A DNA stretch of 64,000 bases from a virus, in IMG/VR virus record IMGVR_UViG_3300035686_000005, positions 1-64,000 of that record. One strand, 5' to 3'. Positions 1 through 64,000 of this stretch are shown here, piece after piece (the first letter of the stretch is position 1; each line of letters begins with the position of its first letter). The notes below the pieces were generated by a model that made no database searches, was not told the origin of the DNA, and worked only from the letters and a program-made list of their open reading frames with translations. Made by a program: the position numbers and the translations under genes.

Positions 1-17
1 TAGTAGTATTATTATAA

Positions 18-452
18 TTGTTGGCAATCAAAGTAATGGATAAACACATTATTACTTTCAAGTATAAGGGAGAAGTGATGCAGACTAGAGCATGTCTGCA
101 TTCTGACGATTTTATCTGGGTAGAAAATCATCCAGATTATCAGGAAGATTATTTGGCTTGTGACCTAGATGACTTTTACGAAAAATTAACCGACATTGCC
201 CCAAAGAATTACCACACAACGTCTGAGCTGAGAGTTGTTCCTAACGGCTATCTGATTGGTATCGGTCATTACTTATCAGAACAAGCAAAACAAATCCTCG
301 ATATGTCCTCTGATAGTGAGGGTATTGAGTTATGCAATTTTCTTTATCCGGTCATGTCTGCAATAGAAGCGCTCAAACATTACGGATTAACCAATGCAGA
401 GATCAGGGAAGTCATAAAGAAAGTTTACAAAAAAGAGTTAAGTCTTTTTTAA
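18..452 (+). CDS. hypothetical protein
   Basis: 144-aa ORF (TTG at 18, first ATG at 36); followed by motif 458-470 and a hairpin terminator. Confidence 0.6.
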   Translation: MLAIKVMDKHIITFKYKGEVMQTRACLHSDDFIWVENHPDYQEDYLACDLDDFYEKLTDIAPKNYHTTSELRVVPNGYLIGIGHYLSEQAKQILDMSSDSEGIELCNFLYPVMSAIEALKHYGLTNAEIREVIKKVYKKELSLF

Positions 453-457
453 CCCTC

Positions 458-470
458 TAAAGTAACTTTA
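458..470. repeat. TAAAGTWACTTTA copy (W=A)
   Basis: perfect 13-mer, 5 nt after the stop of 18-452 and before hairpin 477-498. Confidence 0.95.
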
Positions 471-476
471 CGGAAT

Positions 477-498
477 ACCCCCAGCAATGGGGGTTTTT
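477..498 (+). terminator. intrinsic terminator
   Basis: ACCCCC-AGCAAT-GGGGGT stem-loop followed by TTTTT. Confidence 0.7.
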
Positions 499-501
499 AA
501 T

Positions 502-519
502 TTGTAGCCATTCTAATAT
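502..519 (+). promoter_or_regulatory. promoter-like box TTGTAG-N6-TAATAT
   Basis: directly follows a terminator T-run; the 19-mer TTGTAGCCATTCTAATATA recurs at 16922-16940; the -10-like hexamer ends 39 nt before ATG 559. Confidence 0.45.
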
Positions 520-534
520 ATTGTGTTATACTTA

Positions 535-547
535 TAAAGTAACTTTA
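535..547. repeat. TAAAGTWACTTTA copy (W=A)
   Basis: perfect; 11 nt upstream of ATG 559. Confidence 0.95.
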
Positions 548-558
548 AACGTTGTTCC

Positions 559-978
559 ATGCCTAAGAAATACAATAACGGTCATGTTTTCACTACTGAA
601 GCTGGGGAGATAATTCTCATGCAACGGCTTGACAACCATTCTCCTGCTAGAGGCATATTCAAATGTTATTGCAAAAAGAAGTTTGAATCGTATATACACA
701 GTGTTTCATCTGGAGACACTAAAAGCTGTGGTTGCTACAAGAAAAAATTGCTGTCTTATGTGGGGAAAATGAACAAATTTCGAGTAAAGTACAAACCGAA
801 TCAGACAATCAAAAATAATTTCGGCACTATTAAATTTCTCAGCAGGAATAAAGATAATAATGATTTGGGTACTTTCAAATGTTTTTGTGGTAAAAAGTTT
901 GAAGGGAATATATCCTCAGTATTTACAATGCGTAAACAATCTTGTGGTTGTATTCGAGGTTCAGGAAGCGTAAAGTAA
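559..978 (+). CDS. tandem zinc-ribbon protein (two CxC...CGC modules)
   Basis: GIFKCYCKKKFE..SCGC and GTFKCFCGKKFE..SCGC repeats; the same module opens ORF 1975-2427; stop TAA is the centre of motif 971-983. Confidence 0.65.
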   Translation: MPKKYNNGHVFTTEAGEIILMQRLDNHSPARGIFKCYCKKKFESYIHSVSSGDTKSCGCYKKKLLSYVGKMNKFRVKYKPNQTIKNNFGTIKFLSRNKDNNDLGTFKCFCGKKFEGNISSVFTMRKQSCGCIRGSGSVK

Positions 979-983
979 CTTTA
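971..983. repeat. TAAAGTWACTTTA copy (W=A)
   Basis: perfect; central TAA is the stop of 559-978. Confidence 0.95.
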
Positions 984-1049
984 GAAATCAGAAAATCCCT
1001 CTACCAAAAATAGAGGGATCGTAAAACATTCAATTCAATACTAACAGAC

Positions 1050-1868
1050 ATGAAGACATCAAACACAACAAAAGCTAAACCTTTCATTAAGTGGGTAGGT
1101 GGCAAGGGGAAAATGCTAGAGCAATATGAACGCTTTTTTCCTAACAAGTATGACCGATACTTTGAGCCGTTTCTAGGTGGAGGTTCTGTTTTCTTCCACA
1201 TCGAACCCGATAGGGCAGTACTTAGCGACATCAATAAAGACTTGATATTTGCATACTTAGCAGTAAGGGATAACCCGGATCTGTTGATGGAGCTACTTGA
1301 CAAACATCTAGCCAATCATGATGCAGATTACTTCAAAAACACAAGAAGGACACATTACAGAACGGACATAGAAAAAGCAGCAAAGTTCGTTTACCTAAAC
1401 AAGACTTGCTTTAATGGTCTTTACCGGGAAAATAAAAAAGGAGAGCTAAACTCCCCATTAAACAAAGATTTCAACGGCAACCTTTACAATCGCCAAAATA
1501 TAGAGTATTGCTCAACAGCTTTGCAAGATGTTGACATAAGGTGTTGTGCCTTTGGGGAAGCTTTACTTAGTGTAAGACGGGGCGATTTTGTCTACCTCGA
1601 TCCTCCATACGATCCGGTATCCAAAACTAGTAATTTTGTGTCCTATAGTGCTGATGGATTTGACAGCATTAATCAGAAGACTCTCAGAGATGCGGTTATA
1701 TGCCTCTCAGACATGGGTGTAAAGGTGATGCTGTCCAATTCTGATACCCCTTTAATCAGGGAGCTGTACAAGCGATTCTCGATACATGAGGTTAAATCTC
1801 CGAGGTCGGTTAACTCAGTCGGAACCAAGAGAGGCAAGATATCAGAGTTACTGATTACCAACTACTAA
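1050..1868 (+). CDS. dam: N6-adenine DNA methyltransferase, Dam/D12 class
   Basis: KWVGGKGKML N-terminus, SAM-binding EPFLGGGSVFF, catalytic DPPY (VYLDPPYDP); stop TAA is the first triplet of motif 1866-1878. Confidence 0.85.
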   Translation: MKTSNTTKAKPFIKWVGGKGKMLEQYERFFPNKYDRYFEPFLGGGSVFFHIEPDRAVLSDINKDLIFAYLAVRDNPDLLMELLDKHLANHDADYFKNTRRTHYRTDIEKAAKFVYLNKTCFNGLYRENKKGELNSPLNKDFNGNLYNRQNIEYCSTALQDVDIRCCAFGEALLSVRRGDFVYLDPPYDPVSKTSNFVSYSADGFDSINQKTLRDAVICLSDMGVKVMLSNSDTPLIRELYKRFSIHEVKSPRSVNSVGTKRGKISELLITNY

Positions 1869-1878
1869 AGTAACTTTA
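1866..1878. repeat. TAAAGTWACTTTA copy (W=A)
   Basis: perfect; first TAA is the stop of dam. Confidence 0.95.
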
Positions 1879-1974: not shown

Positions 1975-2427
1975 ATGGGAATCAAACCAAATCAATACAA
2001 ACCAAATCAAGTTTTTGAAACAAAAGGAGGATTAATCACGCTTATAAAGGCATACGAATATAATGGCATTTCGAGGAATGGACTTTTTATGTGTTACTGC
2101 AAAAAATTATTTGAGGCTAGTATTAACAATGTAAAAATTAAAAAAACAAATTCTTGTGGATGTCTGAAAAAAACTAATCCAGGAAGACCAAAAAAAGAAA
2201 ATTCACTTATCAGACATCCCTTGTACCGTAAATGGTTTGAAATCAAAAACAAACCAGATTCATACCCAATGTGGATCGCTAGCTTTGAAGATTTTATTAG
2301 GGATGTAAAATACGAATTAGGAGATGATTACATTGAAAAAAATGTATCGATAACTCGGATAGATGAACGTATTGGTTATGAACCGGGCAACATAAAACCT
2401 GGTAGGAAAGCTAAACAGCAACAATAA
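1975..2427 (+). CDS. zinc-ribbon plus AP2-like DNA-binding protein
   Basis: GLFMCYCKKLFE..SCGC module followed by HPLYRKWFEIKN...ITRIDERIGYEPGN, a pattern I associate with AP2-type DNA-binding domains of homing-endonuclease-like proteins. Confidence 0.55.
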   Translation: MGIKPNQYKPNQVFETKGGLITLIKAYEYNGISRNGLFMCYCKKLFEASINNVKIKKTNSCGCLKKTNPGRPKKENSLIRHPLYRKWFEIKNKPDSYPMWIASFEDFIRDVKYELGDDYIEKNVSITRIDERIGYEPGNIKPGRKAKQQQ

Positions 2428-2437
2428 AGTAACTTTA
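2425..2437. repeat. TAAAGTWACTTTA copy (W=A)
   Basis: perfect; first TAA is the stop of 1975-2427. Confidence 0.95.
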
Positions 2438-2925: not shown

Positions 2926-2938
2926 TAAAGTAACTTTA
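2926..2938. repeat. TAAAGTWACTTTA copy (W=A)
   Basis: perfect; intergenic, just before hairpin 2941-2971. Confidence 0.95.
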
Positions 2939-3837: not shown

Positions 3838-3850
3838 TAAAGTAACTTTA
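3838..3850. repeat. TAAAGTWACTTTA copy (W=A)
   Basis: perfect; intergenic, before hairpin 3858-3882. Confidence 0.95.
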
Positions 3851-4802: not shown

Positions 4803-5045
4803 ATGTTTCATAGGAAAAATGAACAGGCATACGACAAAATCATAGAAATAATCAAGACAAACGGCAGTGCAAGCCGATACGAGTTTCTAGAAAAAACGGG
4901 ACTCCCCAAGAGTACTCTAGACACAATGCTTCAACGATTGCGATATGAGAATAAGATTACTTATTACAACCATACGGAACTCAGGAATGCAGGTTTTAGA
5001 AGATGTAAAAAAACTGTTAGGCGGTATACCCTAAAAAATCAATAA
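4803..5045 (+). CDS. small winged-helix-like DNA-binding protein
   Basis: ATG 4803 has AAGG 7 nt upstream (ORF track starts at GTG 4797); SRYEFLEKTGLPKSTLDTMLQRLRYENKI; stop TAA is the first triplet of motif 5043-5055. Confidence 0.5.
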   Translation: MFHRKNEQAYDKIIEIIKTNGSASRYEFLEKTGLPKSTLDTMLQRLRYENKITYYNHTELRNAGFRRCKKTVRRYTLKNQ

Positions 5046-5055
5046 AGTAACTTTA
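5043..5055. repeat. TAAAGTWACTTTA copy (W=A)
   Basis: perfect; first TAA is the stop of 4803-5045; 7 nt upstream of the -35 at 5063. Confidence 0.95.
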
Positions 5056-5118: not shown

Positions 5119-5307
5119 ATGGATACACAAAAAAGTAAGAAATCTGATCCTCATCCTACAAGTGTCAGAATTAAAAGACATGTTTATGAGGCGTTAGTGG
5201 AAATTAGTAAATCTGATAATAGAAGTATTAATGTTCTGTTAAATATGGCGGCTGAAGAGTTCATAAAAAACAATAAATATAAAGTACCAAGAGTTATAAT
5301 TGAGTAA
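5119..5307 (+). CDS. ribbon-helix-helix (CopG/Arc-like) protein
   Basis: TSVRIKRHVYEALVEISKSDNRSINVLLNMAAEEF has a beta-strand/helix/helix layout; TTGACA-N17-TAGCAT promoter at 5063-5091. Confidence 0.5.
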   Translation: MDTQKSKKSDPHPTSVRIKRHVYEALVEISKSDNRSINVLLNMAAEEFIKNNKYKVPRVIIE

Positions 5308-5364: not shown

Positions 5365-5377
5365 TAAAGTAACTTTA
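5365..5377. repeat. TAAAGTWACTTTA copy (W=A)
   Basis: perfect; last TTA is the minus-strand stop of 5375-6064. Confidence 0.95.
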
Positions 5378-6787: not shown

Positions 6788-7362
6788 TGGTATACTACCT
6801 CTACAATATCAGTGTTGTCGAGAAACATCGGTCTTAGCCACGTTAAAGTTACTTTATCAATCCGATAATCGACGGGATAAAGCGCTTTAACTCCATTCAC
6901 AGTAAATAAACTTAAATGTGGTTTTGTTGGTTCTTTAGTCAAAACGAATACAGTCTGTCCTAGTTGAGGCACAAACATCTCCCTATAAGAGGGGGACACA
7001 ACACCCGTGTCAGGTTCATCAGGGTTGTTGTTTATGGGATCGAGAATTACTCCCCTAGCCCTAAGTGTTGCAAGATCTATGTCTGCATTGCTATCAGAGG
7101 GAAGAGTGAACAGGAACCCATCTTTTTTGTCACCTCTGAACACACATTTATACGTGGTGGGTAGTCCAGATTTTGATTCGTTACACCAAAGATTAGTTTC
7201 AAAAGTGCCATTAACGGCAGTCTTGACTATGAAAGTCTGTTGGGGGTAATTGGTTTTATTGTCACGGTCATAGCTGCCAGGATGTAGCCTGAATTCTATT
7301 TCCAGACCCCCCCAAGCTTCCCCATTAATTCGTTCGACCTTACCCTTGACTTTTCTTAGCAC
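6784..7362 (-). CDS. hypothetical protein
   Basis: 192 aa, GTG start; the 16-mer box shared with the capsid-operon leader lies 26 nt upstream; internal motif copy read DKVTLTW. Confidence 0.6.
   Translation of the reverse strand: MLRKVKGKVERINGEAWGGLEIEFRLHPGSYDRDNKTNYPQQTFIVKTAVNGTFETNLWCNESKSGLPTTYKCVFRGDKKDGFLFTLPSDSNADIDLATLRARGVILDPINNNPDEPDTGVVSPSYREMFVPQLGQTVFVLTKEPTKPHLSLFTVNGVKALYPVDYRIDKVTLTWLRPMFLDNTDIVEVVYQ
6844..6856. repeat. TAAAGTWACTTTA copy (W=T)
   Basis: perfect; inside 6784-7362, read K-V-T-L. Confidence 0.95.
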
Positions 7363-7443: not shown

Positions 7444-7456
7444 TAAAGTAACTTTA
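7444..7456. repeat. TAAAGTWACTTTA copy (W=A)
   Basis: perfect; in the divergent intergenic region 7363-7530. Confidence 0.95.
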
Positions 7457-7530: not shown

Positions 7531-8754
7531 ATGGCTACTAAAACCGAATCCAACAAAAAATCAACCGCTAAGAAAGCAACAAAGACAAAGGACACACCAA
7601 AACAAGACAATCTGTTACTGGCTGGATTAGACAACGTAACAATCAGTGATGTGATGTATATCGGTATTGAAGGGGCGATCGACATGTTCGATTACCTCTG
7701 GAATTATGATAAATCTTGGTATGTTCGCAAAACCACTAAGCTGAATAAGGAACAATTGCAGCAGTATGAAAAATCTTTAACCGTTCCTAAAACTGGCAAT
7801 ACGAGCTATCTTCGCAATCTGAATCCTTTCTTAATATGGAAGAAAGATGGTAAGCATTATCTAATAAACGGTAACTCTCGTTTTCAGATGTATGAATCTG
7901 TCTATGAGCGCAATGACAATACAGAAATTTCCCCAATTGGTTATCAAATAGTTGAGGGTGAGCTAACTAAAGAGATTGTAGAGAGACTGCAATACAGCTT
8001 GAACGACACAACACGCCCCAACTCACCCATCGAGAAGTATAAGCGAATCATTGAGTATTTAAATCAAGGTTACGATCGCTCTTATATATGCCAATACTTT
8101 GATGTGTTGGAACAAGAGATAAGCAACGCCAAAACTCTGTTACAGAATCCGATTCCTGAACTGTTGGCAGACATGATTGACTCAGGTACTGCTACCACTG
8201 AAGGTGCTGTAAAGGTGATGCAGACGGCAAAGGCTTTAGAACTTGATCCGGAGATGATAATTGGTTTATCGCTAACTTTCTCCAAAAAAGGGAAAGTCAC
8301 TCAAGGTAGTGTAACAAAGTGGCGTAAGCATTATGAGGATGAGCAAGCCAGATTAAAGGCTGAAGCTGAAGCAGCTGAGCAAGCCAAACAGCAAGCCGAC
8401 GCTGAAGCGGCTGAGCAAGCTAAAGCAGCAGAGCAACGCCAAAATGTAAATGATGTTGCTGAAGAAACGGAGATATTAGATGAGGTCGTTAGAGAGTTTG
8501 ATGAATCTGAAACAGAAGAAGCGGAAACACCCGCAGTAATCGAAGTTCCTAAAATTGATATGTCTTCTCTCTTGGCTGAAACAAATCCTAGCCAGATAGG
8601 GTTAATGATGCGTATTGCTGCTCAGTACATTTCAAGCGATGCACTATCAGACGAAAAGCGATCCGAGATACATGAATCAATGAAAGCGTTACTCCTGACA
8701 ATCTCAAAGGATTTACCAGAGACAGAGAAAGCCAAGATTCAATCAGTACTGTAG
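7531..8754 (+). CDS. ParB/Srx-like N-terminal domain protein with acidic Ala/Glu/Gln tail (tentative)
   Basis: KHYLINGNSRFQMY resembles the ParB GxxR box; HTH-like middle region (ISNAKTLLQNPIPELLADMIDSG); architecture matches 22487-23902. Confidence 0.5.
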   Translation: MATKTESNKKSTAKKATKTKDTPKQDNLLLAGLDNVTISDVMYIGIEGAIDMFDYLWNYDKSWYVRKTTKLNKEQLQQYEKSLTVPKTGNTSYLRNLNPFLIWKKDGKHYLINGNSRFQMYESVYERNDNTEISPIGYQIVEGELTKEIVERLQYSLNDTTRPNSPIEKYKRIIEYLNQGYDRSYICQYFDVLEQEISNAKTLLQNPIPELLADMIDSGTATTEGAVKVMQTAKALELDPEMIIGLSLTFSKKGKVTQGSVTKWRKHYEDEQARLKAEAEAAEQAKQQADAEAAEQAKAAEQRQNVNDVAEETEILDEVVREFDESETEEAETPAVIEVPKIDMSSLLAETNPSQIGLMMRIAAQYISSDALSDEKRSEIHESMKALLLTISKDLPETEKAKIQSVL

Positions 8755-8759
8755 CGTCG

Positions 8760-8772
8760 TAAAGTAACTTTA
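8760..8772. repeat. TAAAGTWACTTTA copy (W=A)
   Basis: perfect; 5 nt after the stop of 7531-8754, before hairpin. Confidence 0.95.
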
Positions 8773-9301: not shown

Positions 9302-9314
9302 TAAAGTAACTTTA
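9302..9314. repeat. TAAAGTWACTTTA copy (W=A)
   Basis: perfect; after the stop of 8857-9294, before hairpin 9321-9344. Confidence 0.95.
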
Positions 9315-10403: not shown

Positions 10404-10416
10404 TAAAGTAACTTTA
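10404..10416. repeat. TAAAGTWACTTTA copy (W=A)
   Basis: perfect; after terminator 10366-10391, 10 nt before ATG 10427. Confidence 0.95.
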
Positions 10417-10426: not shown

Positions 10427-11236
10427 ATGGAAGAAGCGATCGCAATGTGGGAAGGTGGAAAAGTCCTTAATGCAAGAAAAGGAAACTATGAAGACTACCG
10501 TGTTAGAGGTATGTTGTGTATGCACTGTCACCAAAGCGTATTTTGGCGTAAGTCATATAAAAAAGATGATGTCATATACAGCGCTGCTTGGTGCCATTTT
10601 CAAATTACTGAAGATACCAAGCTATGTGAGAAGAGACACCTCACAGACGAAACTAAGCGGCTTGTAGAGAAGCTTCAGCCAAAGGCTAGAGGGCAGCGTT
10701 TAGCTCTATTCAATTCGAGATTTTGGGACATCTTCTCACACGATAAGGACATACCCAAAGATTTTTACTTAGGGGTTAAAGAAAAAGCAATGTATGAACT
10801 GTCAGAACATTGTCGAAAACGATGGGACGTGAAGCAAATATTAAGCGTGTTGCCACAAAGGGTCAAAGACATTACTGATGCTGAGAACATCAGAAAAAAT
10901 GCATTAATACAATTTGCCAACCTAACAGAAAAGGACATCGAAATATTGTCCACACACTTTTTAGATATGAAGTATAACGTTTTACGTTACAAAATTTTGT
11001 GCGAAGTTGTTGAATGGCTAGGCACATCTAGCGCAAAAAATAGCTTTCATAAGGTCACAACCTTGGCATTTTTTAACGCGGTTGAGATAGCACCAAAACC
11101 AGTCAGAACAAATATGGTTGCAAACTTTATCCTAAATAGTCTCATAATGACTAAATGGGATCAAAACTTAGATGAGTTACCACAACCCAATAAGGGTATA
11201 GGTTTTGGACAGCCTAAAGTAACTTTAAAGAAATAG
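10427..11236 (+). CDS. hypothetical protein with CxxC zinc-finger-like N-terminus
   Basis: 269 aa, CMHCHQSVFW...WCHF...LCEKRH; C-terminus encodes motif copy PKVTLKK. Confidence 0.6.
   Translation: MEEAIAMWEGGKVLNARKGNYEDYRVRGMLCMHCHQSVFWRKSYKKDDVIYSAAWCHFQITEDTKLCEKRHLTDETKRLVEKLQPKARGQRLALFNSRFWDIFSHDKDIPKDFYLGVKEKAMYELSEHCRKRWDVKQILSVLPQRVKDITDAENIRKNALIQFANLTEKDIEILSTHFLDMKYNVLRYKILCEVVEWLGTSSAKNSFHKVTTLAFFNAVEIAPKPVRTNMVANFILNSLIMTKWDQNLDELPQPNKGIGFGQPKVTLKK
11215..11227. repeat. TAAAGTWACTTTA copy (W=A)
   Basis: perfect; last codons of 10427-11236 (KVTL); 9 nt upstream of the -35 at 11237. Confidence 0.95.
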
Positions 11237-11293: not shown

Positions 11294-11743
11294 ATGACAA
11301 GAGTATCGGCTAAATACATTCGGAGACTGGCAACACAATACGGGATTGAGATTACTGAACCGCTCAGATCTCAAGCCATCAAAGCTAAGTATGTTGAATT
11401 GATAGCCGATGCAATTTGCCAGGAACAAGGACGCATTGCTTACCAAGAGAAAGTTTTAGCATTTCAGGCAGAAATTGAAGAAGCCTGTGGATGTTTCTAC
11501 CATATGACAAATTTCAATAGTCTAATGCAGACTTGCGAAATCAGATACACAGCTGAAAAAACAACTGTTGGATATATCTCACAAGGAATGTTAGGTGTGT
11601 CCTATAGGCTCAGCTCAGATTGCAGAAATGTTTCACGCCCAGCTAAGACTGCTTTTGATGCAGCTGATGCGATAATCAACTGGCATATGAACCAACTCAA
11701 GCACTCACTATTTCCAGCTAAAGTAACTTTAGGTCAAAAATAA
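11294..11743 (+). CDS. hypothetical protein
   Basis: 149 aa; TTGCAC-N17-TATAAT promoter at 11237-11265; C-terminus encodes motif copy AKVTLGQK. Confidence 0.6.
11719..11731. repeat. TAAAGTWACTTTA copy (W=A)
   Basis: perfect; last codons of 11294-11743 (KVTL); 17 nt before ATG 11749. Confidence 0.95.
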
Positions 11744-13346: not shown

Positions 13347-13359
13347 TAAAGTTACTTTA
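13347..13359. repeat. TAAAGTWACTTTA copy (W=T)
   Basis: perfect; last TTA is the stop of the TIR gene (minus strand). Confidence 0.95.
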
Positions 13360-14008: not shown

Positions 14009-14021
14009 TAAAGTAACTTTA
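14009..14021. repeat. TAAAGTWACTTTA copy (W=A)
   Basis: perfect; between divergent starts 14004 (-) and 14045 (+). Confidence 0.95.
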
Positions 14022-14739: not shown

Positions 14740-14752
14740 TAAAGTAACTTTA
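14740..14752. repeat. TAAAGTWACTTTA copy (W=A)
   Basis: perfect; begins right after stop 14737-14739; 4 nt upstream of the -35 at 14757. Confidence 0.95.
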
Positions 14753-16165: not shown

Positions 16166-16870
16166 GTGTTATATACTGAAATAAGTTCAGAAATTATTAG
16201 GAAGTACCCAGACATGATCGCCAACAATTTTTTTGACGGAATCGAACAAGAAATTTTGGATAGCATAACCATTCGGTCGGCATCGGCTTACGACATCATC
16301 AACGAAAATCTTAAGCTACCGATAAGTAAGCGTACTTACTTGACCAATGTAAAAAAGGTTACTAAGTATGTAGAGAGTGGTAGAGTACCGACTGAGTTTT
16401 TAAACATCAAAGCGCCCCCAAAAAATGCAAGGGTTATGTCCTTCCCCTACTTCTGTTTACTTTTCAATTACATTGTTTACATCGATTCGTTAAGGGTAGC
16501 TGACGCCATACCTATGGAACGATGTTTACCAGAAATTAAGAAAGAGGCAAAGTACTGGTTTAGCGTCGAAAAGATAACCAGGATTCTTAACGATCACACA
16601 GTCAAGCAATACGACGATCAAGGGAAGCCGTTATATGAGGGTAAGATGTTTGATTTTTACTTTAAGGTTGAAGGTATCAAATGCCATATAAACAGTTTTC
16701 GCGTTTGGAGTGAGAAGCATCCAGAGTTACCATATTTTTCCCGTAGAAAATTATATACATCTGAAGAGTTCGATCAGTGGCGTAAATTCCTGAAATCAAA
16801 ACCCGGTCGAATCCCTCCCCAAAAGCAACACGATCAGCCAACTAAAAAAGTAGCAATAGAAATTTGCTAA
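16166..16870 (+). CDS. hypothetical protein
   Basis: 234-aa ORF from GTG 16166 (first ATG 16214); two 15-bp direct repeats lie just upstream; stop TAA is the first triplet of motif 16868-16880. Confidence 0.55.
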   Translation: MLYTEISSEIIRKYPDMIANNFFDGIEQEILDSITIRSASAYDIINENLKLPISKRTYLTNVKKVTKYVESGRVPTEFLNIKAPPKNARVMSFPYFCLLFNYIVYIDSLRVADAIPMERCLPEIKKEAKYWFSVEKITRILNDHTVKQYDDQGKPLYEGKMFDFYFKVEGIKCHINSFRVWSEKHPELPYFSRRKLYTSEEFDQWRKFLKSKPGRIPPQKQHDQPTKKVAIEIC

Positions 16871-16880
16871 AGTTACTTTA
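16868..16880. repeat. TAAAGTWACTTTA copy (W=T)
   Basis: perfect; first TAA is the stop of 16166-16870. Confidence 0.95.
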
Positions 16881-17264: not shown

Positions 17265-17277
17265 TAAAGTTACTTTA
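17265..17277. repeat. TAAAGTWACTTTA copy (W=T)
   Basis: perfect; last TTA is the stop of 17275-17577 (minus strand). Confidence 0.95.
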
Positions 17278-19770: not shown

Positions 19771-19783
19771 TAAAGTTACTTTA
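19771..19783. repeat. TAAAGTWACTTTA copy (W=T)
   Basis: perfect; 13 nt upstream of ATG 19797. Confidence 0.95.
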
Positions 19784-22373: not shown

Positions 22374-22386
22374 TAAAGTAACTTTA
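22374..22386. repeat. TAAAGTWACTTTA copy (W=A)
   Basis: perfect; 11 nt after the stop of 22015-22362, before hairpin. Confidence 0.95.
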
Positions 22387-42288: not shown

Positions 42289-42301
42289 TAAAGTTACTTT
42301 A
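42289..42301. repeat. TAAAGTWACTTTA copy (W=T)
   Basis: perfect; between stop 42309 and capsid start 42274. Confidence 0.95.
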
Positions 42302-45380: not shown

Positions 45381-47142
45381 ATTGATATTTTGTTAAAGGT
45401 TTACCTAGGCTTCTAGAAGACCCTGGCTTTTTGTGATGTTTCTGATAGATAACAATTGCAGACTCTGCAAACACCAAAGCAAAATAAAAATCGTCGTCAT
45501 GATCATTTGGTCTTATGAATTGACCTGTTTTGATATCTCTCTTGATCGACGTTACATGCTTCTTAAACTTTCTGTGAGGTATGCAATCTAATCGATAGTT
45601 GCAATCAATAAAAGATAAAAATATCTCTTCCTGAAAAAGTGTATTGCTGATTGCAAAGCAGTCAACTTCTAAACCACCATATTCTACCTTAATTTTTGCA
45701 ACATCAGTCATTATGTTGCGTTGATCAGCCATTACAAGTACACCTTGAGAAGCTTTTTCTAATTCGTTTGCAGACTTGCGCCCTGGTTCATTGTCAATTA
45801 CTGCGAAGTCAATTTGATTTGATTGCAGATATGAGATAATATTGCTCTCTTCAATTTCAATTACTGCCCTAATATTTTTTCGTTTGAAGTCCTTAGCATC
45901 TACTTCTAAATCTACCAGGTAATGTGTCCCTGTTCCTTGATCGATGCCCACGATCCGGATAGGGTTGTCTATCTCATATGGCTTGAGATTGACAACCGCT
46001 TCATAGTCTGATGGAGTAATACCAGTTACAGTAAACTTCGATTCTAATCCTAATTTGTTTTGGTGATAAATCAATACAGATTCAGGATCTAATCCGTCTT
46101 TAATCAAATCTCTGAGTCTATACTCATCATCTGGCACCTTAAGCAAGGGACTGAGATAAATACTGATTGAAGGGTAGTATATTGTGTCTTCCGGTATACT
46201 ATCCAGAAATTCGTCGGCTGATAGCAGAGATTGTCTTGAATAAAGCTGACAGTCTTTAATGTTGGTTGTGATGTCTGCATTGCAATTGCTACACGCTACG
46301 AATGGATTGTCCTCAGTTCCATGAAAATCTAAGATTTCGCCTCTATTATTAAAATACTCAAAATTACCCTCTAAAGTTACTTTAGGCTTAAGTAAGTTTC
46401 CTAACGGATGTAACCAGGAAAGTTCCTTACACACAGGACACATTACACCCGGTTCAAAATTGTGCTTGGCGTCTCTGATACCTTGCTCAATACCAGTACC
46501 GCTTCCTGGAGTTCCTAGCTCCCGTATAGGTTTTGATTTTAAACGGGATGCGCCAAGTCTAGGAGAAAGATCAACGTTAGTTTTCCAACTTGATTTTTCT
46601 TCATAATATAATTTACTAGCTTGGAAAGCATTTTGCTCTTTACCTTCTGCCGATCCTCCGCTCTTATCTTCGCTGGATGAATTAGCATGAGTGAAATTCG
46701 CTATTGCCATCCCCATTTTGAAGCGTCTTACACTGTCTCTTTCAACCTTGTAAGGTGTTTGTTGCTTCCAATGCTTGACCATAGCTTGGAACTGGCTAGG
46801 CTGTTGGTTTAGCATACTTTGACCAGATGCATATACCCAACCTATGTTAATCTGTCCATTAATTAAATCATCGATTGCGACCAAATAATTAGCCAAAGAC
46901 TTACTTATCTGGCTTGCTCCCGTTGTCAATACATGCCTAAGTCTGTTATCGGCTGTCAGTCGTAACTGTTGCTTAAACCATAAAGTTACTTTAATCTTTT
47001 CGCCATTCTCATTGCAACCATAGTCGATAATTCTCTGAGTTGCATTGATTGCACCTATCCGTTTAAGTGCATTCTGCAAATAAGTATTTTTGCGACGGTT
47101 TTTATACTGCCGTGCTATGTCTGCAATGGTTTGACCTGGCAT
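45355..47142 (-). CDS. terminase large subunit (GpA-like)
   Basis: 595 aa; P-loop-like TTGASQISKS, Cys pairs CPVCKE...CSNCNAD, nuclease-like IVGIDQGTGTHYLV. Confidence 0.75.
   Translation of the reverse strand: MPGQTIADIARQYKNRRKNTYLQNALKRIGAINATQRIIDYGCNENGEKIKVTLWFKQQLRLTADNRLRHVLTTGASQISKSLANYLVAIDDLINGQINIGWVYASGQSMLNQQPSQFQAMVKHWKQQTPYKVERDSVRRFKMGMAIANFTHANSSSEDKSGGSAEGKEQNAFQASKLYYEEKSSWKTNVDLSPRLGASRLKSKPIRELGTPGSGTGIEQGIRDAKHNFEPGVMCPVCKELSWLHPLGNLLKPKVTLEGNFEYFNNRGEILDFHGTEDNPFVACSNCNADITTNIKDCQLYSRQSLLSADEFLDSIPEDTIYYPSISIYLSPLLKVPDDEYRLRDLIKDGLDPESVLIYHQNKLGLESKFTVTGITPSDYEAVVNLKPYEIDNPIRIVGIDQGTGTHYLVDLEVDAKDFKRKNIRAVIEIEESNIISYLQSNQIDFAVIDNEPGRKSANELEKASQGVLVMADQRNIMTDVAKIKVEYGGLEVDCFAISNTLFQEEIFLSFIDCNYRLDCIPHRKFKKHVTSIKRDIKTGQFIRPNDHDDDFYFALVFAESAIVIYQKHHKKPGSSRSLGKPLTKYQYGYQQRKR
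46372..46384. repeat. TAAAGTWACTTTA copy (W=T)
   Basis: perfect; inside the terminase large subunit (PKVTLEG). Confidence 0.95.
46981..46993. repeat. TAAAGTWACTTTA copy (W=T)
   Basis: perfect; inside the terminase large subunit (IKVTLWF). Confidence 0.95.
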
Positions 47143-47878: not shown

Positions 47879-47907
47879 AGTTTAAAGTAACTTTATTGAT
47901 TTGTCAA
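47879..47907 (-). promoter_or_regulatory. promoter-like element upstream of the terminase genes
   Basis: minus strand TTGACA-N17-TAAACT with motif copy 47883-47895 filling the spacer. Confidence 0.4.
47883..47895. repeat. TAAAGTWACTTTA copy (W=A)
   Basis: perfect; lies in the 17-nt spacer of the minus-strand TTGACA/TAAACT promoter-like element upstream of the terminase genes. Confidence 0.95.
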
Positions 47908-48182: not shown

Positions 48183-50411
48183 TCAAACAAATAAACTCAA
48201 CTGCTCAACTTCCTCTTTCAGGGGTTCAGGTTTAAATTCATCCAGAAAGCAAGCCATCTCTTCATACATTTCTCGAAGTATGTCTGCATAATGAGTAACG
48301 TCATAATCTCCCGTTGTAGTTGGCTGTCCATCAATTCCAATGTAGTAGCTTACCGTGTCTCGTTCCTGTCCAAAACCAAGATTAATCAGTTTTACTTCTC
48401 CTACTCTAATTTTACGAGTTACTGTTAGCTGATCCTTTGGGTATTCTCCAGAAACTAGTAAAGCCAGTGTCTCTTGGTAGTAATCGATTGCAGACTTAGG
48501 CGACTCAGCATACAGTTCTAAAAACCTCACTTGGAATTTCTTCTCAAGAGGTAACTTATCTCGTTTCTTGTATCTTCCTTTGGCGGTCAAACCAAACTTT
48601 TGTTTTTTAGGATTCCACTCAACCTTGATGTAGTTTTTCTTGATATTGCCTAGGTCTAGATCAATCCCGAATTTCATACAAGCTTGCATTATTCGATTGT
48701 AGGAAACCTTTTCGGCTCCGAAATTATCCACTATCCATTGATAAAGTTTTGGGTCTTTTGAAACTGATTTTTCAATGAACTTTTTACCGTTTGTTGTCTT
48801 AAATTTGTAGCTTTTCTCAAAATTTCTCGGTACATCCTCAGGCGGGATAAACAAAATTTTATTGACAGCTTCTAAATCAAGTTTCGATCCAGATGGTATA
48901 TTTTCTTTGATTTGTTCAACTATTGCAACGGCTGAAAGTAGCTTATCACTGGGATTAGGAGGAAGCTTTTTAAGTGTTTCCTGAGATATTGGATAATACT
49001 TGTGTATGTCTGTTTTGTCTGTCTTGACGTATACAGAATCAGTATCTGTCAGAACAACTTGACCACCCATAGCCTCAACAAATCCCATAGCCCACTTAAG
49101 TCTTGCACGAGCAAACAAAGTAACCATTGCAGCTGCAAAGCTATCACCATAAGGAATCTGGGCTTTTAAAGAACCGTATGCACTATTTAGAACTGGCTTA
49201 ATTGCAGTTGTCAAATCAATCTCAGCTTGAGTGATATTTTCCTTATACTTGATTGCCATCCTATACTCAACCCCTTGTTGCATGATTGCCAACATAAGCA
49301 TGTCAGGATCGTGTTGAGAATGAATTCCATATTGCATCATGCATGAAGGATATTGACCTGAAAAGTCACACCCTGCAACATCCGTGTGAATTCCACTCAC
49401 TGTATGAGTAATCGCCCCCTGAATACCATAGGGGACATTAGGCGGCAAGCTTTTTGTATTGGCTTCCCCATAGTAATCGTCTAAATTTGAATTCCACTTT
49501 GAAGCATTACCCGATGTTGCCAACTTTTGCAAGTTGTATTTAGGAAAGTAAACCAACTGATAATAGAGAGACGGCATTAAAAAATCGGCTAGCAATTGAG
49601 TATCTTCCAAGTCATAAAAAAGGTACTCTTTAACTGATTCCCAATTGCCCGTTCTATATGCCTCCTCAAGACCTTCTAAACCTAAATCGAGTCTAGGTGT
49701 GTCCCTTAGTCCAAGCTGTATTGGAAGTTCCTTTAAGCTGTACTTGGTAAACTTTCTGAGTACTGAGTCATAGGCAATCGCTAGTTGGTAAATATCAACG
49801 TGATCGCATCGCTTACCATTGAATTTGCAATACACGGGATAGAACCCGATGTCTTGATAACGTCCAGCCAACTCCGCAGCCGCAAACCTGTATTGATAAT
49901 CGTAACTAATAAAGAATGGACTTCTTATTCCTAACTGCTGTGACTTGTGAAATAGATAGGACAAATCGAAGTTTGTTCCATTGAATGTAAAAAGAATATC
50001 CGGTTGCTTCTTATTGAGAAATCGAAACAGAATCTCTAACATTTGAAGTTCTGATTCTTCTCTAATAAAAACTTTTTGACCCTTCTCATTCATTATCCCG
50101 ATAGCTTTTAGCTGAGAAGATTTAGCCCTCAATTCAGGGTCATCAGTTAATATCTTGGTTGTTTCAATATCAAGGTAGACTTTGGTTAAATTCTCATAAG
50201 GCTCTAAAGTTACTTTAGATTGCCACGTAGGAACGGTCTTTGATGTCACACTAAATATGTCAATACAGCGTTCAGGAGGTGTGATAATATTACCTTTATA
50301 GACAAAAATCCATTCCCTGACTTCATCACAATGCAATTGTCTATCAGCTAACTCGTTATAACGACTTTTAATTAATTGGTACTCGGCTTCAGTCAATTCT
50401 CTATCGTCCAT
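48183..50411 (-). CDS. polB: family B DNA polymerase
   Basis: Exo I DIETT, Exo II FNGTNFDLSYL, Exo III YLFYDLEDT, motif A DFSGQYPS, motif B KPVLNSAYG, motif C LTDTDS. Confidence 0.9.
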   Translation of the reverse strand: MDDRELTEAEYQLIKSRYNELADRQLHCDEVREWIFVYKGNIITPPERCIDIFSVTSKTVPTWQSKVTLEPYENLTKVYLDIETTKILTDDPELRAKSSQLKAIGIMNEKGQKVFIREESELQMLEILFRFLNKKQPDILFTFNGTNFDLSYLFHKSQQLGIRSPFFISYDYQYRFAAAELAGRYQDIGFYPVYCKFNGKRCDHVDIYQLAIAYDSVLRKFTKYSLKELPIQLGLRDTPRLDLGLEGLEEAYRTGNWESVKEYLFYDLEDTQLLADFLMPSLYYQLVYFPKYNLQKLATSGNASKWNSNLDDYYGEANTKSLPPNVPYGIQGAITHTVSGIHTDVAGCDFSGQYPSCMMQYGIHSQHDPDMLMLAIMQQGVEYRMAIKYKENITQAEIDLTTAIKPVLNSAYGSLKAQIPYGDSFAAAMVTLFARARLKWAMGFVEAMGGQVVLTDTDSVYVKTDKTDIHKYYPISQETLKKLPPNPSDKLLSAVAIVEQIKENIPSGSKLDLEAVNKILFIPPEDVPRNFEKSYKFKTTNGKKFIEKSVSKDPKLYQWIVDNFGAEKVSYNRIMQACMKFGIDLDLGNIKKNYIKVEWNPKKQKFGLTAKGRYKKRDKLPLEKKFQVRFLELYAESPKSAIDYYQETLALLVSGEYPKDQLTVTRKIRVGEVKLINLGFGQERDTVSYYIGIDGQPTTTGDYDVTHYADILREMYEEMACFLDEFKPEPLKEEVEQLSLFV
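50205..50217. repeat. TAAAGTWACTTTA copy (W=T)
   Basis: perfect; inside polB (SKVTLEP). Confidence 0.95.
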
Positions 50412-50515: not shown

Positions 50516-53266
50516 ATGCAAACAACACTTTCTCGTTCTGACCTTAACGGTCATCAAACTGCATCTGAAACACAATATGGATATGCCGTCAATCGTAAAG
50601 TAATAGCAAAACCTTTAGATAGAAGCCCTAATTTTTGGACAATCCTAGACGAATGGACAATCGAAACTGAATCTGAAGCGATTAAAGCACAATTGGACGG
50701 GTTTGACGTTATATGGAGTCTTATAGACCGTCAAGAGTTCGCACAAGCGATAAAAGAATTCAAAACTGGTGAGTTTAAAAACGTCAAAGGTAAGCCAACA
50801 GATAGTAAAGGGAGGCGAACGATCGATAATAGTCTAATTAAGTACTGTGACACTGTACTTATCGATTTCGACCTTTGCCCCCTTAGCAGCGTTCCCAAAT
50901 CAATTATAGACCAAAGTTGGTTAATGTGTCCCTCTGCATCTCAGACGACTCCTAGTGCAACGGGGGATGTTAGCAAGATGCATTTTATACATAAGATGCC
51001 CAACCGCATACCCGCTAAGTATGCAGCTGCCTACAGGAAAGCATATTTAGACCGTGTGGCAAACGGACTTGCATACGATGAGAAGTGCATCGACCCTAGA
51101 AGAGAGTTCTATGGTAAAAATCCAGAGTTCACAGATCAAAGATTCTATAAAGTAACTTTAGAGAATCGGATTCCTCTGGAGTTACACACAGAAATTCTAA
51201 CCGAGGTAATGAACCTTGACAGAAAAAATCCGTATGGTAATGTACCTGAGAGTGTTGGTGAATTTCTAGAACTCAACAAAGAACCTAAAACCAAAAAGAG
51301 GGGACGCCCTAAAAAGAATGCAGACATATCTGCATTGGTCGATCAACATCTGTTAAGCTTCTGTGATTTGGAAGAGATCGTAAATGGGTTATTTCCTGAT
51401 AGCACTTGGAATAAAAAGGGATCATCGCCCAATGTTTTCGATCAATACGAGACAGTTAACCCATTAAGACCAGATGCAAAAAATGCTACAGCGTTTGCGA
51501 TCGAACATAGCAGCGAAAGCAATCGGATACTCTGTCATTACAAGGCTAGTGACTTCAACTGTTCGTTGTATGAATTCTATGCACGATACAAATTGTTTCA
51601 GCGTGGTGACTCGGATGCAGAAACCAAAAACATTAAATCATTCGTAAGCGGTAAAGGTTTTGTTGATTTGGTTGGGGATATCTGCAATCAGTTAGGTATC
51701 GATGAGTACGAGTTTCCAGAAGAGAAAAAGAAGAAAAAACCAAAACCCCCAACAGACGTACTCTTGAAAATTGCTGAGAACTTCGATCGGAGTGTTATGA
51801 AGTTCTGCAACCTTAACACTAAAGTCTTCTATTTCATCTATAACCGTAACTCTGGAGTATGGGATTACAACTCATCTTTAACCTGGTATGGTGCTGAATT
51901 AAGACGGCTTCTAGAAGACTTTAACTCACTACTCCTAGAAGAAAATCCGGAGTATCAAGAATTGGAAGAAGGAGAAGTTAGCAAGATGGTTTCGTTCATA
52001 AAAGAACATCATGCTAACAACAATTGGATCTTGTCTCAAATCCCATCATTCAGAAACGAATGGATCGGGTTAAGTGATTGCGATTACAACACTAAAACTA
52101 ACGAGTTTGCAGAGAAAAGCCCAAATCACAATCTGTATTTTCGTTTCTCCTTTTCGCGTAAGGATTTTAATGCAACCATCAACATAAAGCAGCGCTACCT
52201 AGAGGCTTTTGAGTTTGCAACTCAAAACAAAACAACAGCCGAGATTCTTTGGCTCTATAAATGTGCAGAAGTCTTGAAGCTAGGTAAAAAAGCTTGGAGA
52301 GCTTTAGTAGTGTCTGGAGCAAGCCGTACCGGAAAATCATCATTTTGTCGATCGCTCATGTATCTAGAGGCATCGGGTGAGAAAGCTCTAAACGTAATCG
52401 CGGAAGTAAACCAAGATGCTTTAAACACGGATTTTGCATTCAGCCGTGTTAACGCATATACAACGGCGTTGCACTTCCCAGAGTTAAGGTTATACACCAA
52501 ACAGGATGTGAACTGGTTACTTCAAATTGTAGACAGTTCTGGTGGAATAAACATCAATGAAAAGTTCAAGCCGATAGTGAATATTGACAGAGATTTTCCT
52601 GTGTATATGTCCATCCAAGATGACTTTAAGATTCCGGCTGGCAACGTTGGTGTTGAATCTCGTTTGCTTTTTACCGAGATAAAACTGCCAGCCAAAGCAG
52701 GTTTACCAATTGCTGATGGAGGCATATGGTACAAAGAACAAGAAAATATATCTTGGTGTAAGGAACTTAACGACCTATATCACGATCCAGAAATGCAAAA
52801 ACAATTGTTTCTTTGGATTCTTCATAACGAAAACACACAGGACATAGAACGCCGACTTGATGAGTTAGTTGGCTCTAAAGAAATGAAAGATCAACAAAAA
52901 TCAGTTCTAGTCCAAAACTCACCATTAACAGAAATGTTTGAAGAGTATGAGATCGAAGTTACTGGGGATGAAAATGATTTTGTTGTATCTAAGGACTTCA
53001 GAGCGTTAGCCAAGAAACATTTAGAGTCTGAAGAGGGTATGAGTCGTGTGTCCTCTGGTTACGTGTCTGGAGTCATACAAAACCATATTCAGAAAAAGTT
53101 TCCCAATGAGTGGGAAAGCATTAAGAAATATGTAACCAAAGGAGAAAAAATAGATTCATTTATCTGGAAAGATGGTAAATCAATCAGGGTGATTAAAGGA
53201 ATCAGATTTACGCCCAAAAAGATGAATGGAGTCAGGACACAGGAAACGGAGTTAGCTACTTTCTAG
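50516..53266 (+). CDS. primase-polymerase / SF3 (D5-like) helicase
   Basis: 916 aa; Walker A VVSGASRTGKSS in the C-terminal half, DxD-like VLIDFDL in the N-terminal half; divergent from polB. Confidence 0.65.
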   Translation: MQTTLSRSDLNGHQTASETQYGYAVNRKVIAKPLDRSPNFWTILDEWTIETESEAIKAQLDGFDVIWSLIDRQEFAQAIKEFKTGEFKNVKGKPTDSKGRRTIDNSLIKYCDTVLIDFDLCPLSSVPKSIIDQSWLMCPSASQTTPSATGDVSKMHFIHKMPNRIPAKYAAAYRKAYLDRVANGLAYDEKCIDPRREFYGKNPEFTDQRFYKVTLENRIPLELHTEILTEVMNLDRKNPYGNVPESVGEFLELNKEPKTKKRGRPKKNADISALVDQHLLSFCDLEEIVNGLFPDSTWNKKGSSPNVFDQYETVNPLRPDAKNATAFAIEHSSESNRILCHYKASDFNCSLYEFYARYKLFQRGDSDAETKNIKSFVSGKGFVDLVGDICNQLGIDEYEFPEEKKKKKPKPPTDVLLKIAENFDRSVMKFCNLNTKVFYFIYNRNSGVWDYNSSLTWYGAELRRLLEDFNSLLLEENPEYQELEEGEVSKMVSFIKEHHANNNWILSQIPSFRNEWIGLSDCDYNTKTNEFAEKSPNHNLYFRFSFSRKDFNATINIKQRYLEAFEFATQNKTTAEILWLYKCAEVLKLGKKAWRALVVSGASRTGKSSFCRSLMYLEASGEKALNVIAEVNQDALNTDFAFSRVNAYTTALHFPELRLYTKQDVNWLLQIVDSSGGININEKFKPIVNIDRDFPVYMSIQDDFKIPAGNVGVESRLLFTEIKLPAKAGLPIADGGIWYKEQENISWCKELNDLYHDPEMQKQLFLWILHNENTQDIERRLDELVGSKEMKDQQKSVLVQNSPLTEMFEEYEIEVTGDENDFVVSKDFRALAKKHLESEEGMSRVSSGYVSGVIQNHIQKKFPNEWESIKKYVTKGEKIDSFIWKDGKSIRVIKGIRFTPKKMNGVRTQETELATF
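51148..51160. repeat. TAAAGTWACTTTA copy (W=A)
   Basis: perfect; inside the primase/helicase gene (YKVTLEN). Confidence 0.95.
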
Positions 53267-53272: not shown

Positions 53273-53285
53273 TAAAGTAACTTTA
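53273..53285. repeat. TAAAGTWACTTTA copy (W=A)
   Basis: perfect; 6 nt after stop 53266, before hairpin 53295-53322. Confidence 0.95.
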
Positions 53286-53850: not shown

Positions 53851-53863
53851 TAAAGTTACTTTA
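53851..53863. repeat. TAAAGTWACTTTA copy (W=T)
   Basis: perfect; between terminator 53864-53895 and start 53801 (minus strand). Confidence 0.95.
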
Positions 53864-54461: not shown

Positions 54462-54474
54462 TAAAGTTACTTTA
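54462..54474. repeat. TAAAGTWACTTTA copy (W=T)
   Basis: perfect; 10 nt after stop 54485 (minus strand), before terminator. Confidence 0.95.
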
Positions 54475-55300: not shown

Positions 55301-55313
55301 TAAAGTTACTTTA
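55301..55313. repeat. TAAAGTWACTTTA copy (W=T)
   Basis: perfect; directly after terminator 55313-55347 (minus strand), upstream of start 55231. Confidence 0.95.
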
Positions 55314-55865: not shown

Positions 55866-55878
55866 TAAAGTAACTTTA
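55866..55878. repeat. TAAAGTWACTTTA copy (W=A)
   Basis: perfect; 15 nt upstream of ATG 55850 (minus strand). Confidence 0.95.
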
Positions 55879-56331: not shown

Positions 56332-56344
56332 TAAAGTTACTTTA
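56332..56344. repeat. TAAAGTWACTTTA copy (W=T)
   Basis: perfect; 7 nt after stop 56352 (minus strand). Confidence 0.95.
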
Positions 56345-57387: not shown

Positions 57388-57400
57388 TAAAGTAACTTTA
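57388..57400. repeat. TAAAGTWACTTTA copy (W=A)
   Basis: perfect; directly after terminator 57401-57428 (minus strand), upstream of start 57323. Confidence 0.95.
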
Positions 57401-58136: not shown

Positions 58137-58149
58137 TAAAGTAACTTTA
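58137..58149. repeat. TAAAGTWACTTTA copy (W=A)
   Basis: perfect; forms a 13-bp perfect inverted pair with 58178-58190 around hairpin 58158-58175. Confidence 0.95.
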
Positions 58150-58177: not shown

Positions 58178-58190
58178 TAAAGTTACTTTA
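58178..58190. repeat. TAAAGTWACTTTA copy (W=T)
   Basis: perfect; 12 nt after stop 58203 (minus strand). Confidence 0.95.
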
Positions 58191-58978: not shown

Positions 58979-58991
58979 TAAAGTTACTTTA
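58979..58991. repeat. TAAAGTWACTTTA copy (W=T)
   Basis: perfect; 11 nt after stop 59003 (minus strand), abuts hairpin 58956-58979. Confidence 0.95.
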
Positions 58992-60214: not shown

Positions 60215-60227
60215 TAAAGTTACTTTA
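60215..60227. repeat. TAAAGTWACTTTA copy (W=T)
   Basis: perfect; after terminator 60179-60208. Confidence 0.95.
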
Positions 60228-60331: not shown

Positions 60332-60344
60332 TAAAGTCACTTTA
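60332..60344. repeat. degenerate motif copy TAAAGTCACTTTA
   Basis: central C instead of W. Confidence 0.7.
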
Positions 60345-61246: not shown

Positions 61247-61259
61247 TAAAGTTACTTTA
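61247..61259. repeat. TAAAGTWACTTTA copy (W=T)
   Basis: perfect; 8 nt upstream of the -35 at 61268. Confidence 0.95.
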
Positions 61260-61322: not shown

Positions 61323-61769
61323 ATGAAGCTGACTTACAACGATCGCAATTATGCCTCAATTCCTCCATCAGAATGGATGTTCATAGCTAACAAATCTGTT
61401 GAGCTGATTAGCGATTCTGTTGTTACCGCAATTGAGGAATATGAACCTCATTTAAGACCAACAGACGCGGCTATCTACTACCTAGAAGACAAGCACGGTT
61501 ATCGAATAGCCAACTGTTATAAATCAATGTTTTGGTCAGATTGGGAAATACTATTATTTCCTAATCCCCACATAGATGAAACCTTGCGTATCAATAAGCT
61601 AGACATGCAAGTGACGAAACAGTTTCATCAAGGCATGGATTATTTTAACAAAGGTTATTCTATGCCAGTAGAGGACAGTCCCTTAAAAGATGGCTGGATG
61701 GCAGCTAGGGAGATGGATCAAATCAAGAAACGTTACCTGCAACAGTGCAAAGAAACTTTTGTTTTCTAA
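61323..61769 (+). CDS. hypothetical protein
   Basis: 148 aa; TTGCAC-N17-TATAGT promoter 61268-61296; stop TAA is the first triplet of motif 61767. Confidence 0.6.
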   Translation: MKLTYNDRNYASIPPSEWMFIANKSVELISDSVVTAIEEYEPHLRPTDAAIYYLEDKHGYRIANCYKSMFWSDWEILLFPNPHIDETLRINKLDMQVTKQFHQGMDYFNKGYSMPVEDSPLKDGWMAAREMDQIKKRYLQQCKETFVF

Positions 61770-61779
61770 AGTAACTTTA
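61767..61779. repeat. TAAAGTWACTTTA copy (W=A)
   Basis: perfect; first TAA is the stop of 61323-61769. Confidence 0.95.
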
Positions 61780-62060: not shown

Positions 62061-62062
62061 TA

Positions 62063-62293
62063 ATGGACAAGCTAGTCAGTATCAGGGTTTACAGATGGGA
62101 TGGTTTTTCAGACGGGATCGAGAAGCCGGAAGTTGATTTAGGAAAGCTAACTGCATCTATTGAAACAGACAAATTGATCATAAAATCTATTAACGGCATT
62201 CCTGTTAATGTGATTATGTCTGATGCAACATTGTATGAGTTCTATCCTGATTTTACCGGATACGAAATCGAAGATCCTTTAAAGTTACTTTAG
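62063..62293 (+). CDS. hypothetical protein
   Basis: ATG 62063 (track starts at TTG 62057); C-terminus PLKLL-stop is encoded by motif 62280-62292. Confidence 0.5.
   Translation: MDKLVSIRVYRWDGFSDGIEKPEVDLGKLTASIETDKLIIKSINGIPVNVIMSDATLYEFYPDFTGYEIEDPLKLL
62280..62292. repeat. TAAAGTWACTTTA copy (W=T)
   Basis: perfect; the only copy read in the K-L-L frame; its final TA plus G gives stop TAG 62291-62293. Confidence 0.95.
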
Positions 62294-62329
62294 AACTCAG
62301 CTTAATTACCACAAGAGAAAGGACACACC

Positions 62330-62647
62330 ATGATACTCGAAAGCGAAGAATTCCAAGTATTGGCTGAAACTTGCACATATCAAGACAACGAAAGTGCTGA
62401 TTATCTGGCATACTGTGACGATGGTATGAAGCGTAGATACACTATCTATGCATATTGCATGACGCCAATTAATGTTTATGAAGAGGAATTGATGTGGACA
62501 ACATCAAACGGAGAAAAAATTAAAGCCTCAGAGATAAAGCCCAGTCACAGGAAAAACATCATTAATCTATTGCAGAGACGGTTAAGGGATTGTGATGATG
62601 ATTTTCAGAAAGGTGTTATCTTATGTCAAATTATAGCTTTCAGCTAG
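62330..62647 (+). CDS. hypothetical protein
   Basis: 105 aa; same 17-nt initiation region as 61821; terminator 62685-62716. Confidence 0.55.
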   Translation: MILESEEFQVLAETCTYQDNESADYLAYCDDGMKRRYTIYAYCMTPINVYEEELMWTTSNGEKIKASEIKPSHRKNIINLLQRRLRDCDDDFQKGVILCQIIAFS

Positions 62648-62684
62648 ACGTGTTATAATACACCTAATCGTATCAATTTGCTTG

Positions 62685-62716
62685 CCATCTGTAATCTCCT
62701 ACAGGTGGTTTTTCTT
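62685..62716 (+). terminator. intrinsic terminator
   Basis: CCATCTGT...ACAGGTGG followed by TTTTT. Confidence 0.6.
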
Positions 62717-62722
62717 TTGGGC

Positions 62723-62735
62723 TAAAGTTACTTTA
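62723..62735. repeat. TAAAGTWACTTTA copy (W=T)
   Basis: perfect; after terminator 62685-62716, upstream of 62786. Confidence 0.95.
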
Positions 62736-62785
62736 TAACTTTTCGATAAATGTAGCCATATTAAATATTTAAGGTTAGAATCGAT

Positions 62786-62995
62786 ATGTCCTTAAAAAAT
62801 TTCCACATGAACGACACACCCAGAAGTATTGAATTGCAGAATGAAAGGGATTACATCAGCTGGTTGAAACGTCAAGGTATCTCACGAGCTGAGCATAGTA
62901 GAAGAGTGAGTGCATTGATAAAGAGTCATCCAATACCCTTGCAATTGGAACTGAAAGCTTTAAAGGAACGTCTGAAAAGGAAACACAACCGATAG
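62786..62995 (+). CDS. hypothetical protein
   Basis: 69-aa basic ORF. Confidence 0.5.
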   Translation: MSLKNFHMNDTPRSIELQNERDYISWLKRQGISRAEHSRRVSALIKSHPIPLQLELKALKERLKRKHNR

Positions 62996-63028
62996 ATATG
63001 GCGAAATACATTTTCAAGTTTGATCCAG

Positions 63029-63364
63029 ATGAAGACGATACGAGGGGAAGCGGACGTGATTAAGACCTACACAAGAAAATCGACATACACAGAGGACACA
63101 GCCCTAGGTGTTTATGTCAGGAATGATAAAGCCAGCATTGATGAGATACCCAAAACTATCAGCCTACCCAATGCAGAGATCAAAATTCAGGACGATTCTG
63201 GATTTGTATTTCTCCTGGCTGCTGCTAACAATCCTGGCAAGGAATGGATTAAAGAGGGGGAATGGTACCGACATGTGCAATCTGGTCTTAAGGCAAAATT
63301 ACACGCCCCCAAGAGCCGTACATATCAAGAAGCGGTAATGGAATTGCAGGTAATGTTTCCTTAG
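63029..63364 (+). CDS. hypothetical protein
   Basis: ATG 63029 within track ORF 63020-63364. Confidence 0.5.
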   Translation: MKTIRGEADVIKTYTRKSTYTEDTALGVYVRNDKASIDEIPKTISLPNAEIKIQDDSGFVFLLAAANNPGKEWIKEGEWYRHVQSGLKAKLHAPKSRTYQEAVMELQVMFP

Positions 63365-63378
63365 CGTTAGCAACAGAA

Positions 63379-63391
63379 TAAAGTTACTTTA
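63379..63391. repeat. TAAAGTWACTTTA copy (W=T)
   Basis: perfect; central TAA (minus) is the stop of 63384-63899. Confidence 0.95.
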
Positions 63392-63899
63392 GATTTTCAT
63401 CAGCTCCAGATTGATTTCTGGAGCTGTTGACATTTAATAGAGTTTTTAATAAAACAACATCATTGTTTAGATTGAGGAGTAAAGTCAGAACTAACATTAC
63501 TTGACCGTTACTTTCTTGCTTTGCAGAGATAACAGCCATATTTTCTTTGACTGCCACAATCGCCTCTTTCAGCTTCCCTATTTCTTCTTGCAATTCGTGT
63601 ATTGCATTGAGCCGAGAGATTATAGAATCCAGTCCATTTTCTAACTCTCGTATCAGTTCCCGATTCGCGTCATATCGATCGATATTGCTGCTTTGCCTCT
63701 CCTTCTCCCGGTCGATTATATAGGCGACAACTCCAGACACTATAGTTGCGCCAAGTCCTACCCAACCTTCCGGGGATATCGATCGAGCAAGCTTAAGCAG
63801 GAATGGCAAATCGAACAGCTTGGAAAAAATATACATCACCACTATCCAAAAAATGGCAATGTACAGTAATTTTTTCCACTTCTTTTTAAAGTAATACAA
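63384..63899 (-). CDS. membrane-anchored coiled-coil protein
   Basis: 171 aa, TTG start, two N-terminal hydrophobic helices; stop is the central TAA of motif 63379-63391. Confidence 0.55.
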   Translation of the reverse strand: MYYFKKKWKKLLYIAIFWIVVMYIFSKLFDLPFLLKLARSISPEGWVGLGATIVSGVVAYIIDREKERQSSNIDRYDANRELIRELENGLDSIISRLNAIHELQEEIGKLKEAIVAVKENMAVISAKQESNGQVMLVLTLLLNLNNDVVLLKTLLNVNSSRNQSGADENLK

Positions 63900-64000
63900 G
63901 CTGACTTACTTTATGGTTATGGGCAAGCGTATCATTCATGTTATCACTGATGATAGTTTTGGGAGTGTTATCACAATAAACAATTCTCAACGTTGGTGTC

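Follow-up and report, generated by a model that had tools for sequence, protein, structure and literature searches.

The uncultivated 65-kb cyanobacterial phage (cyanophage) examined here raises the question of what a single 13-base palindrome, present in 67 letter-perfect copies, does in its genome; most likely a phage protein, probably of the ParB/KorB type, binds it and thereby controls the whole genome. Throughout the window, by which we mean the entire 64,000-nucleotide stretch analyzed, TAAAGTWACTTTA has exactly 66 exact matches (central base on the + strand A in 36 of 66, T in 30 of 66), in agreement, copy for copy, with a sequence-only reading that had claimed at least that many, whereas 100 dinucleotide-preserving shuffles average 0.02 matches and never exceed 2. 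One TAAAGTCACTTTA copy, at 60332, completes the set. Copies with one mismatch are absent (0.47 expected), and those with two and three number 5 (5.7 expected) and 45 (56.6 expected), so the motif family is all-or-none; of two degenerate copies proposed earlier, 60332 stands as the central-C form and 47908 is one of the 5 two-mismatch matches. The weak flank preferences were seen as described, with C in 37 copies and A in 19 at position -1, G in 35 and T in 18 at +1, and a weak symmetric extension of the form yTC...GAr. The sites are listed below in + strand form, with genes given by coordinates and strand sign and KVTL marking copies read as K-V-T-L.

458..470, TAAAGTAACTTTA: 18-452+ stop 5 nt before; then terminator hairpin 477-494
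535..547, TAAAGTAACTTTA: -10 box TATACT (end 532) 3 nt before; 559-978+ start 11 nt on
971..983, TAAAGTAACTTTA: central TAA is the 559-978+ stop
1866..1878, TAAAGTAACTTTA: first TAA is the 1050-1868+ stop; then terminator 1889-1910
2425..2437, TAAAGTAACTTTA: first TAA is the 1975-2427+ stop; then terminator 2448-2475
2926..2938, TAAAGTAACTTTA: intergenic; then hairpin 2941-2963
3838..3850, TAAAGTAACTTTA: intergenic; then bidirectional terminator 3858-3876
5043..5055, TAAAGTAACTTTA: 4797-5045+ stop; Arc-like gene promoter TTGACA-17-TAGCAT 7 nt downstream
5365..5377, TAAAGTAACTTTA: 5375-6064- stop
6844..6856, TAAAGTTACTTTA: KVTL within 6784-7362-
7444..7456, TAAAGTAACTTTA: TTGCCA-17-TAATAT, promoter of ParB-like 7531-8754, 9 nt downstream
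8760..8772, TAAAGTAACTTTA: 7531-8754+ stop 5 nt before; then terminator 8779-8794
9302..9314, TAAAGTAACTTTA: 8857-9294+ stop 7 nt before; then terminator 9319-9340
10404..10416, TAAAGTAACTTTA: preceded by terminator 10364-10389; 10427-11236+ start 10 nt on
11215..11227, TAAAGTAACTTTA: KVTL, final codons of 10427-11236+; TTGCAC-17-TATAAT 9 nt downstream
11719..11731, TAAAGTAACTTTA: KVTL, final codons of 11294-11743+; RecT start 17 nt on
13347..13359, TAAAGTTACTTTA: 13357-14004- stop
14009..14021, TAAAGTAACTTTA: between divergent starts of 13357-14004- and 14042-14434+
14740..14752, TAAAGTAACTTTA: adjoins 14506-14739+ stop; TTGCAT-17-TAGTAT 4 nt downstream
16868..16880, TAAAGTTACTTTA: 16166-16870+ stop; then terminator 16896-16915
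17265..17277, TAAAGTTACTTTA: 17275-17577- stop; then - strand terminator
17898..17910, TAAAGTTACTTTA: KVTL within 17596-18180+
18368..18380, TAAAGTTACTTTA: KVTL within 18180-18905+
19771..19783, TAAAGTTACTTTA: 19797-20087+ start 13 nt on
21649..21661, TAAAGTTACTTTA: KVTL within 21614-22015+ (HNH)
22374..22386, TAAAGTAACTTTA: 22015-22362+ stop 11 nt before; then hairpin; ParB-like 22487-23902 100 nt on
23910..23922, TAAAGTAACTTTA: 22487-23902+ stop 7 nt before; then hairpin
24577..24589, TAAAGTAACTTTA: KVTL within 24277-24681-
26339..26351, TAAAGTTACTTTA: 26344-26559- stop; overlaps 25119-26339- ATG
27044..27056, TAAAGTTACTTTA: KVTL within 26519-28807-
28812..28824, TAAAGTAACTTTA: 28822-29403- stop; 26519-28807- start 4 nt on
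29408..29420, TAAAGTTACTTTA: 29418-30782- stop; 28822-29403- start 4 nt on
30782..30794, TAAAGTTACTTTA: 30792-31349- stop and 29418-30782- ATG (TAA AGT AAC TTT ATG)
32546..32558, TAAAGTTACTTTA: 32556-32903- stop; 31349-32539- start 6 nt on
33623..33635, TAAAGTTACTTTA: 33633-36668- (tape measure) stop and 33252-33623- ATG
34305..34317, TAAAGTAACTTTA: KVTL within 33633-36668- (tape measure)
36285..36297, TAAAGTAACTTTA: KVTL within 33633-36668- (tape measure)
36668..36680, TAAAGTAACTTTA: 36678-37088- stop and 33633-36668- ATG; junction likewise holds the local motif in relatives L123, L125 and L156
37071..37083, TAAAGTAACTTTA: KVTL within 36678-37088-, gene start 5 nt away
38316..38328, TAAAGTAACTTTA: 38339-39529- stop 10 nt before; junction occupied in L123 and L125
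40068..40080, TAAAGTTACTTTA: central TAA is the 40073-40543- (Mu gp36-like) stop; gene end occupied in L123 and L125
41100..41112, TAAAGTAACTTTA: 41123-42274- (capsid-like) stop 10 nt before; first codons of 40830-41141-
42289..42301, TAAAGTTACTTTA: between 42309-42899- and 41123-42274-; junction occupied in L123 and L156
43261..43273, TAAAGTAACTTTA: KVTL within 42904-43989-; homologous codons in L123 are TAAAGCGACTTTA (KATL)
45321..45333, TAAAGTAACTTTA: KVTL within portal gene 44124-45380-
46372..46384, TAAAGTTACTTTA: KVTL, TerL 45355-47142- aa 254-257; L123 motif at homologous codons
46981..46993, TAAAGTTACTTTA: KVTL, TerL 45355-47142- aa 51-54
47883..47895, TAAAGTAACTTTA: intergenic, between 47946-48167- and TerS-like gene 47142-47717-
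50205..50217, TAAAGTTACTTTA: KVTL within PolB 48183-50411-; homologous codons in L123 also KVTL, with the L123 motif
51148..51160, TAAAGTAACTTTA: KVTL within primase-helicase-like gene 50516-53266+; homologous codons in L123 are TAAAGTCGCTTTA (KVAL)
53273..53285, TAAAGTAACTTTA: 50516-53266+ stop 6 nt before; then hairpin
53851..53863, TAAAGTTACTTTA: intergenic
54462..54474, TAAAGTTACTTTA: 54485-55231- stop 10 nt before; then - strand hairpin
55301..55313, TAAAGTTACTTTA: TTGCAA-17-TATACT (- strand) 8 nt downstream
55866..55878, TAAAGTAACTTTA: 55446-55850- start 15 nt on
56332..56344, TAAAGTTACTTTA: 56352-57323- stop 7 nt before
57388..57400, TAAAGTAACTTTA: intergenic; adjoins hairpin
58137..58149, TAAAGTAACTTTA: flanks a hairpin as a pair with 58178; TTGACA-17-TACACT (- strand) 6 nt downstream
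58178..58190, TAAAGTTACTTTA: 58203-58898- stop 12 nt before; separated from 58137 by the hairpin
58979..58991, TAAAGTTACTTTA: 59003-59920- stop 11 nt before; then hairpin
60215..60227, TAAAGTTACTTTA: in a 1.4-kb non-coding region; preceded by terminator-like hairpin
60332..60344, TAAAGTCACTTTA: variant, the only central-C copy; non-coding region; L123 form
61247..61259, TAAAGTTACTTTA: TTGCAC-17-TATAGT 8 nt downstream; divergent promoter-like boxes on either side
61767..61779, TAAAGTAACTTTA: 61323-61769+ stop
62280..62292, TAAAGTTACTTTA: final TA plus next G is the 62057-62293+ TAG stop
62723..62735, TAAAGTTACTTTA: intergenic; 62786-62995+ 50 nt on
63379..63391, TAAAGTTACTTTA: between convergent genes; central TAA is the 63384-63899- stop

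Fifty copies are either intergenic or run into a stop or start codon (about 47 by the earlier count), and 17 are strictly intra-ORF. Thirty-two overlap a stop codon (18 of the 32) or lie within 20 nt past one, 16 have a start codon no more than 25 nt away, and four share the last A of the motif with an ATG; in seven, a -35 box follows 4-9 nt downstream, in fixed geometry. The proposed order of stop codon, motif and terminator hairpin is upheld in the early regions, where, in 9 of approximately 12 strong + strand terminators (1-20 kb), a motif precedes the stem by 2-15 nt. The view of the motif as a cassette-like mark at nearly all gene boundaries is nevertheless overstated, as one copy in four is intragenic. 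All intragenic copies are read in the one open frame (xxT AAA GTW ACT TTA), as KVTL, and the motif is retained within essential genes too. Furthermore, the copies are spaced at about one per kilobase, far more regularly than at random (coefficient of variation 0.57 versus 0.98 under random placement; largest gap 2322 versus 4501 expected; P about 5e-5), and even spacing explains the placement no less well than boundary marking does.

Syntenic relatives with TerL proteins 47-63% identical have motif variants of their own (TAAAG-TSA-CTTTA, TAAAG-YRYR-CTTTA, TAGAGTWACTCTA and TAAACCGGTTTA), whose half-site changes are symmetric. Some of their sites occupy exactly homologous codons and junctions despite saturated synonymous sites, and two relatives have repeated early promoters whose -35/-10 spacer is either filled or bracketed by the motif. 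At TerL residues 51-54, homologues show QVTK or RITT in gap-free alignment, and this copy thus arose by substitution. An unrelated phage, which encodes a distant ParB-like protein, carries 65 copies of the same 13-mer and has no genes in common with the present one; no motif-rich host genome was found.

Three phage proteins are candidate readers of the motif:

7531..8754, + strand: candidate reader 1, ParB-like protein of 407 aa (phrog_1033 'ParB-like partition protein', E 3e-6) with a putative helix-turn-helix '...LEQEISNAKTLL'; motif 9 nt upstream of its own promoter
22487..23902, + strand: candidate reader 2, ParB-fold protein of 471 aa, from an AlphaFold model and PDB matches
5119..5307, + strand: alternative candidate, Arc/Mnt-like ribbon-helix-helix protein of 62 aa (PHROG 'Arc-like repressor', E 7e-6); the -35 box of its promoter begins 7 nt past a motif copy

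The sequence-only reading had named all three as possible binders, and the first two, which prove to be paralogous ParB-fold proteins, are the best candidates for a still putative reader role. The model of 22487-23902, built from 14 sequences (pLDDT 75.6), has ParB or Spo0J proteins as its five best PDB matches (7bnk, 5k5d, 5k5a, 1vz0; probability 0.96-1.0), and its family counts only 13 representatives in 1.84 billion proteins. The 62-residue protein aligns with what we take to be the sequences of P22 Arc and Mnt, and a repressor of the Arc type may be the reader instead, as may a host factor.

The sequence-only reading had set out four possible functions for the motif without choosing among them, and three of these fare less well. 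An RNA-level signal is disfavored, as the 13-mer does not fold by itself, is found in either orientation and, in relatives, sits within promoter spacers that are not transcribed. Microhomology for cassette exchange finds no support, given that sites are retained at homologous codons within essential genes and that two unrelated phages bear the same motif without common genes; a methyltransferase target is unlikely as well, the enzyme in question being a Dam-like D12 methylase accounted for by GATC counts. The symmetric half-site changes, the -35 geometry, the promoter-spacer sites and the ParB folds instead favor a dimeric DNA-binding protein acting as global regulator or organizer, with binding itself predicted.

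We therefore propose that the palindrome is a double-stranded DNA site for a symmetric dimer, and that the site works both as an operator and, across the genome, in silencing or loading. Such action would resemble that of mycobacteriophage stoperators and of KorB OB sites, and because two of the named candidate binders are paralogous ParB-fold proteins, the KorB/ParB precedent appears to be more than a resemblance.

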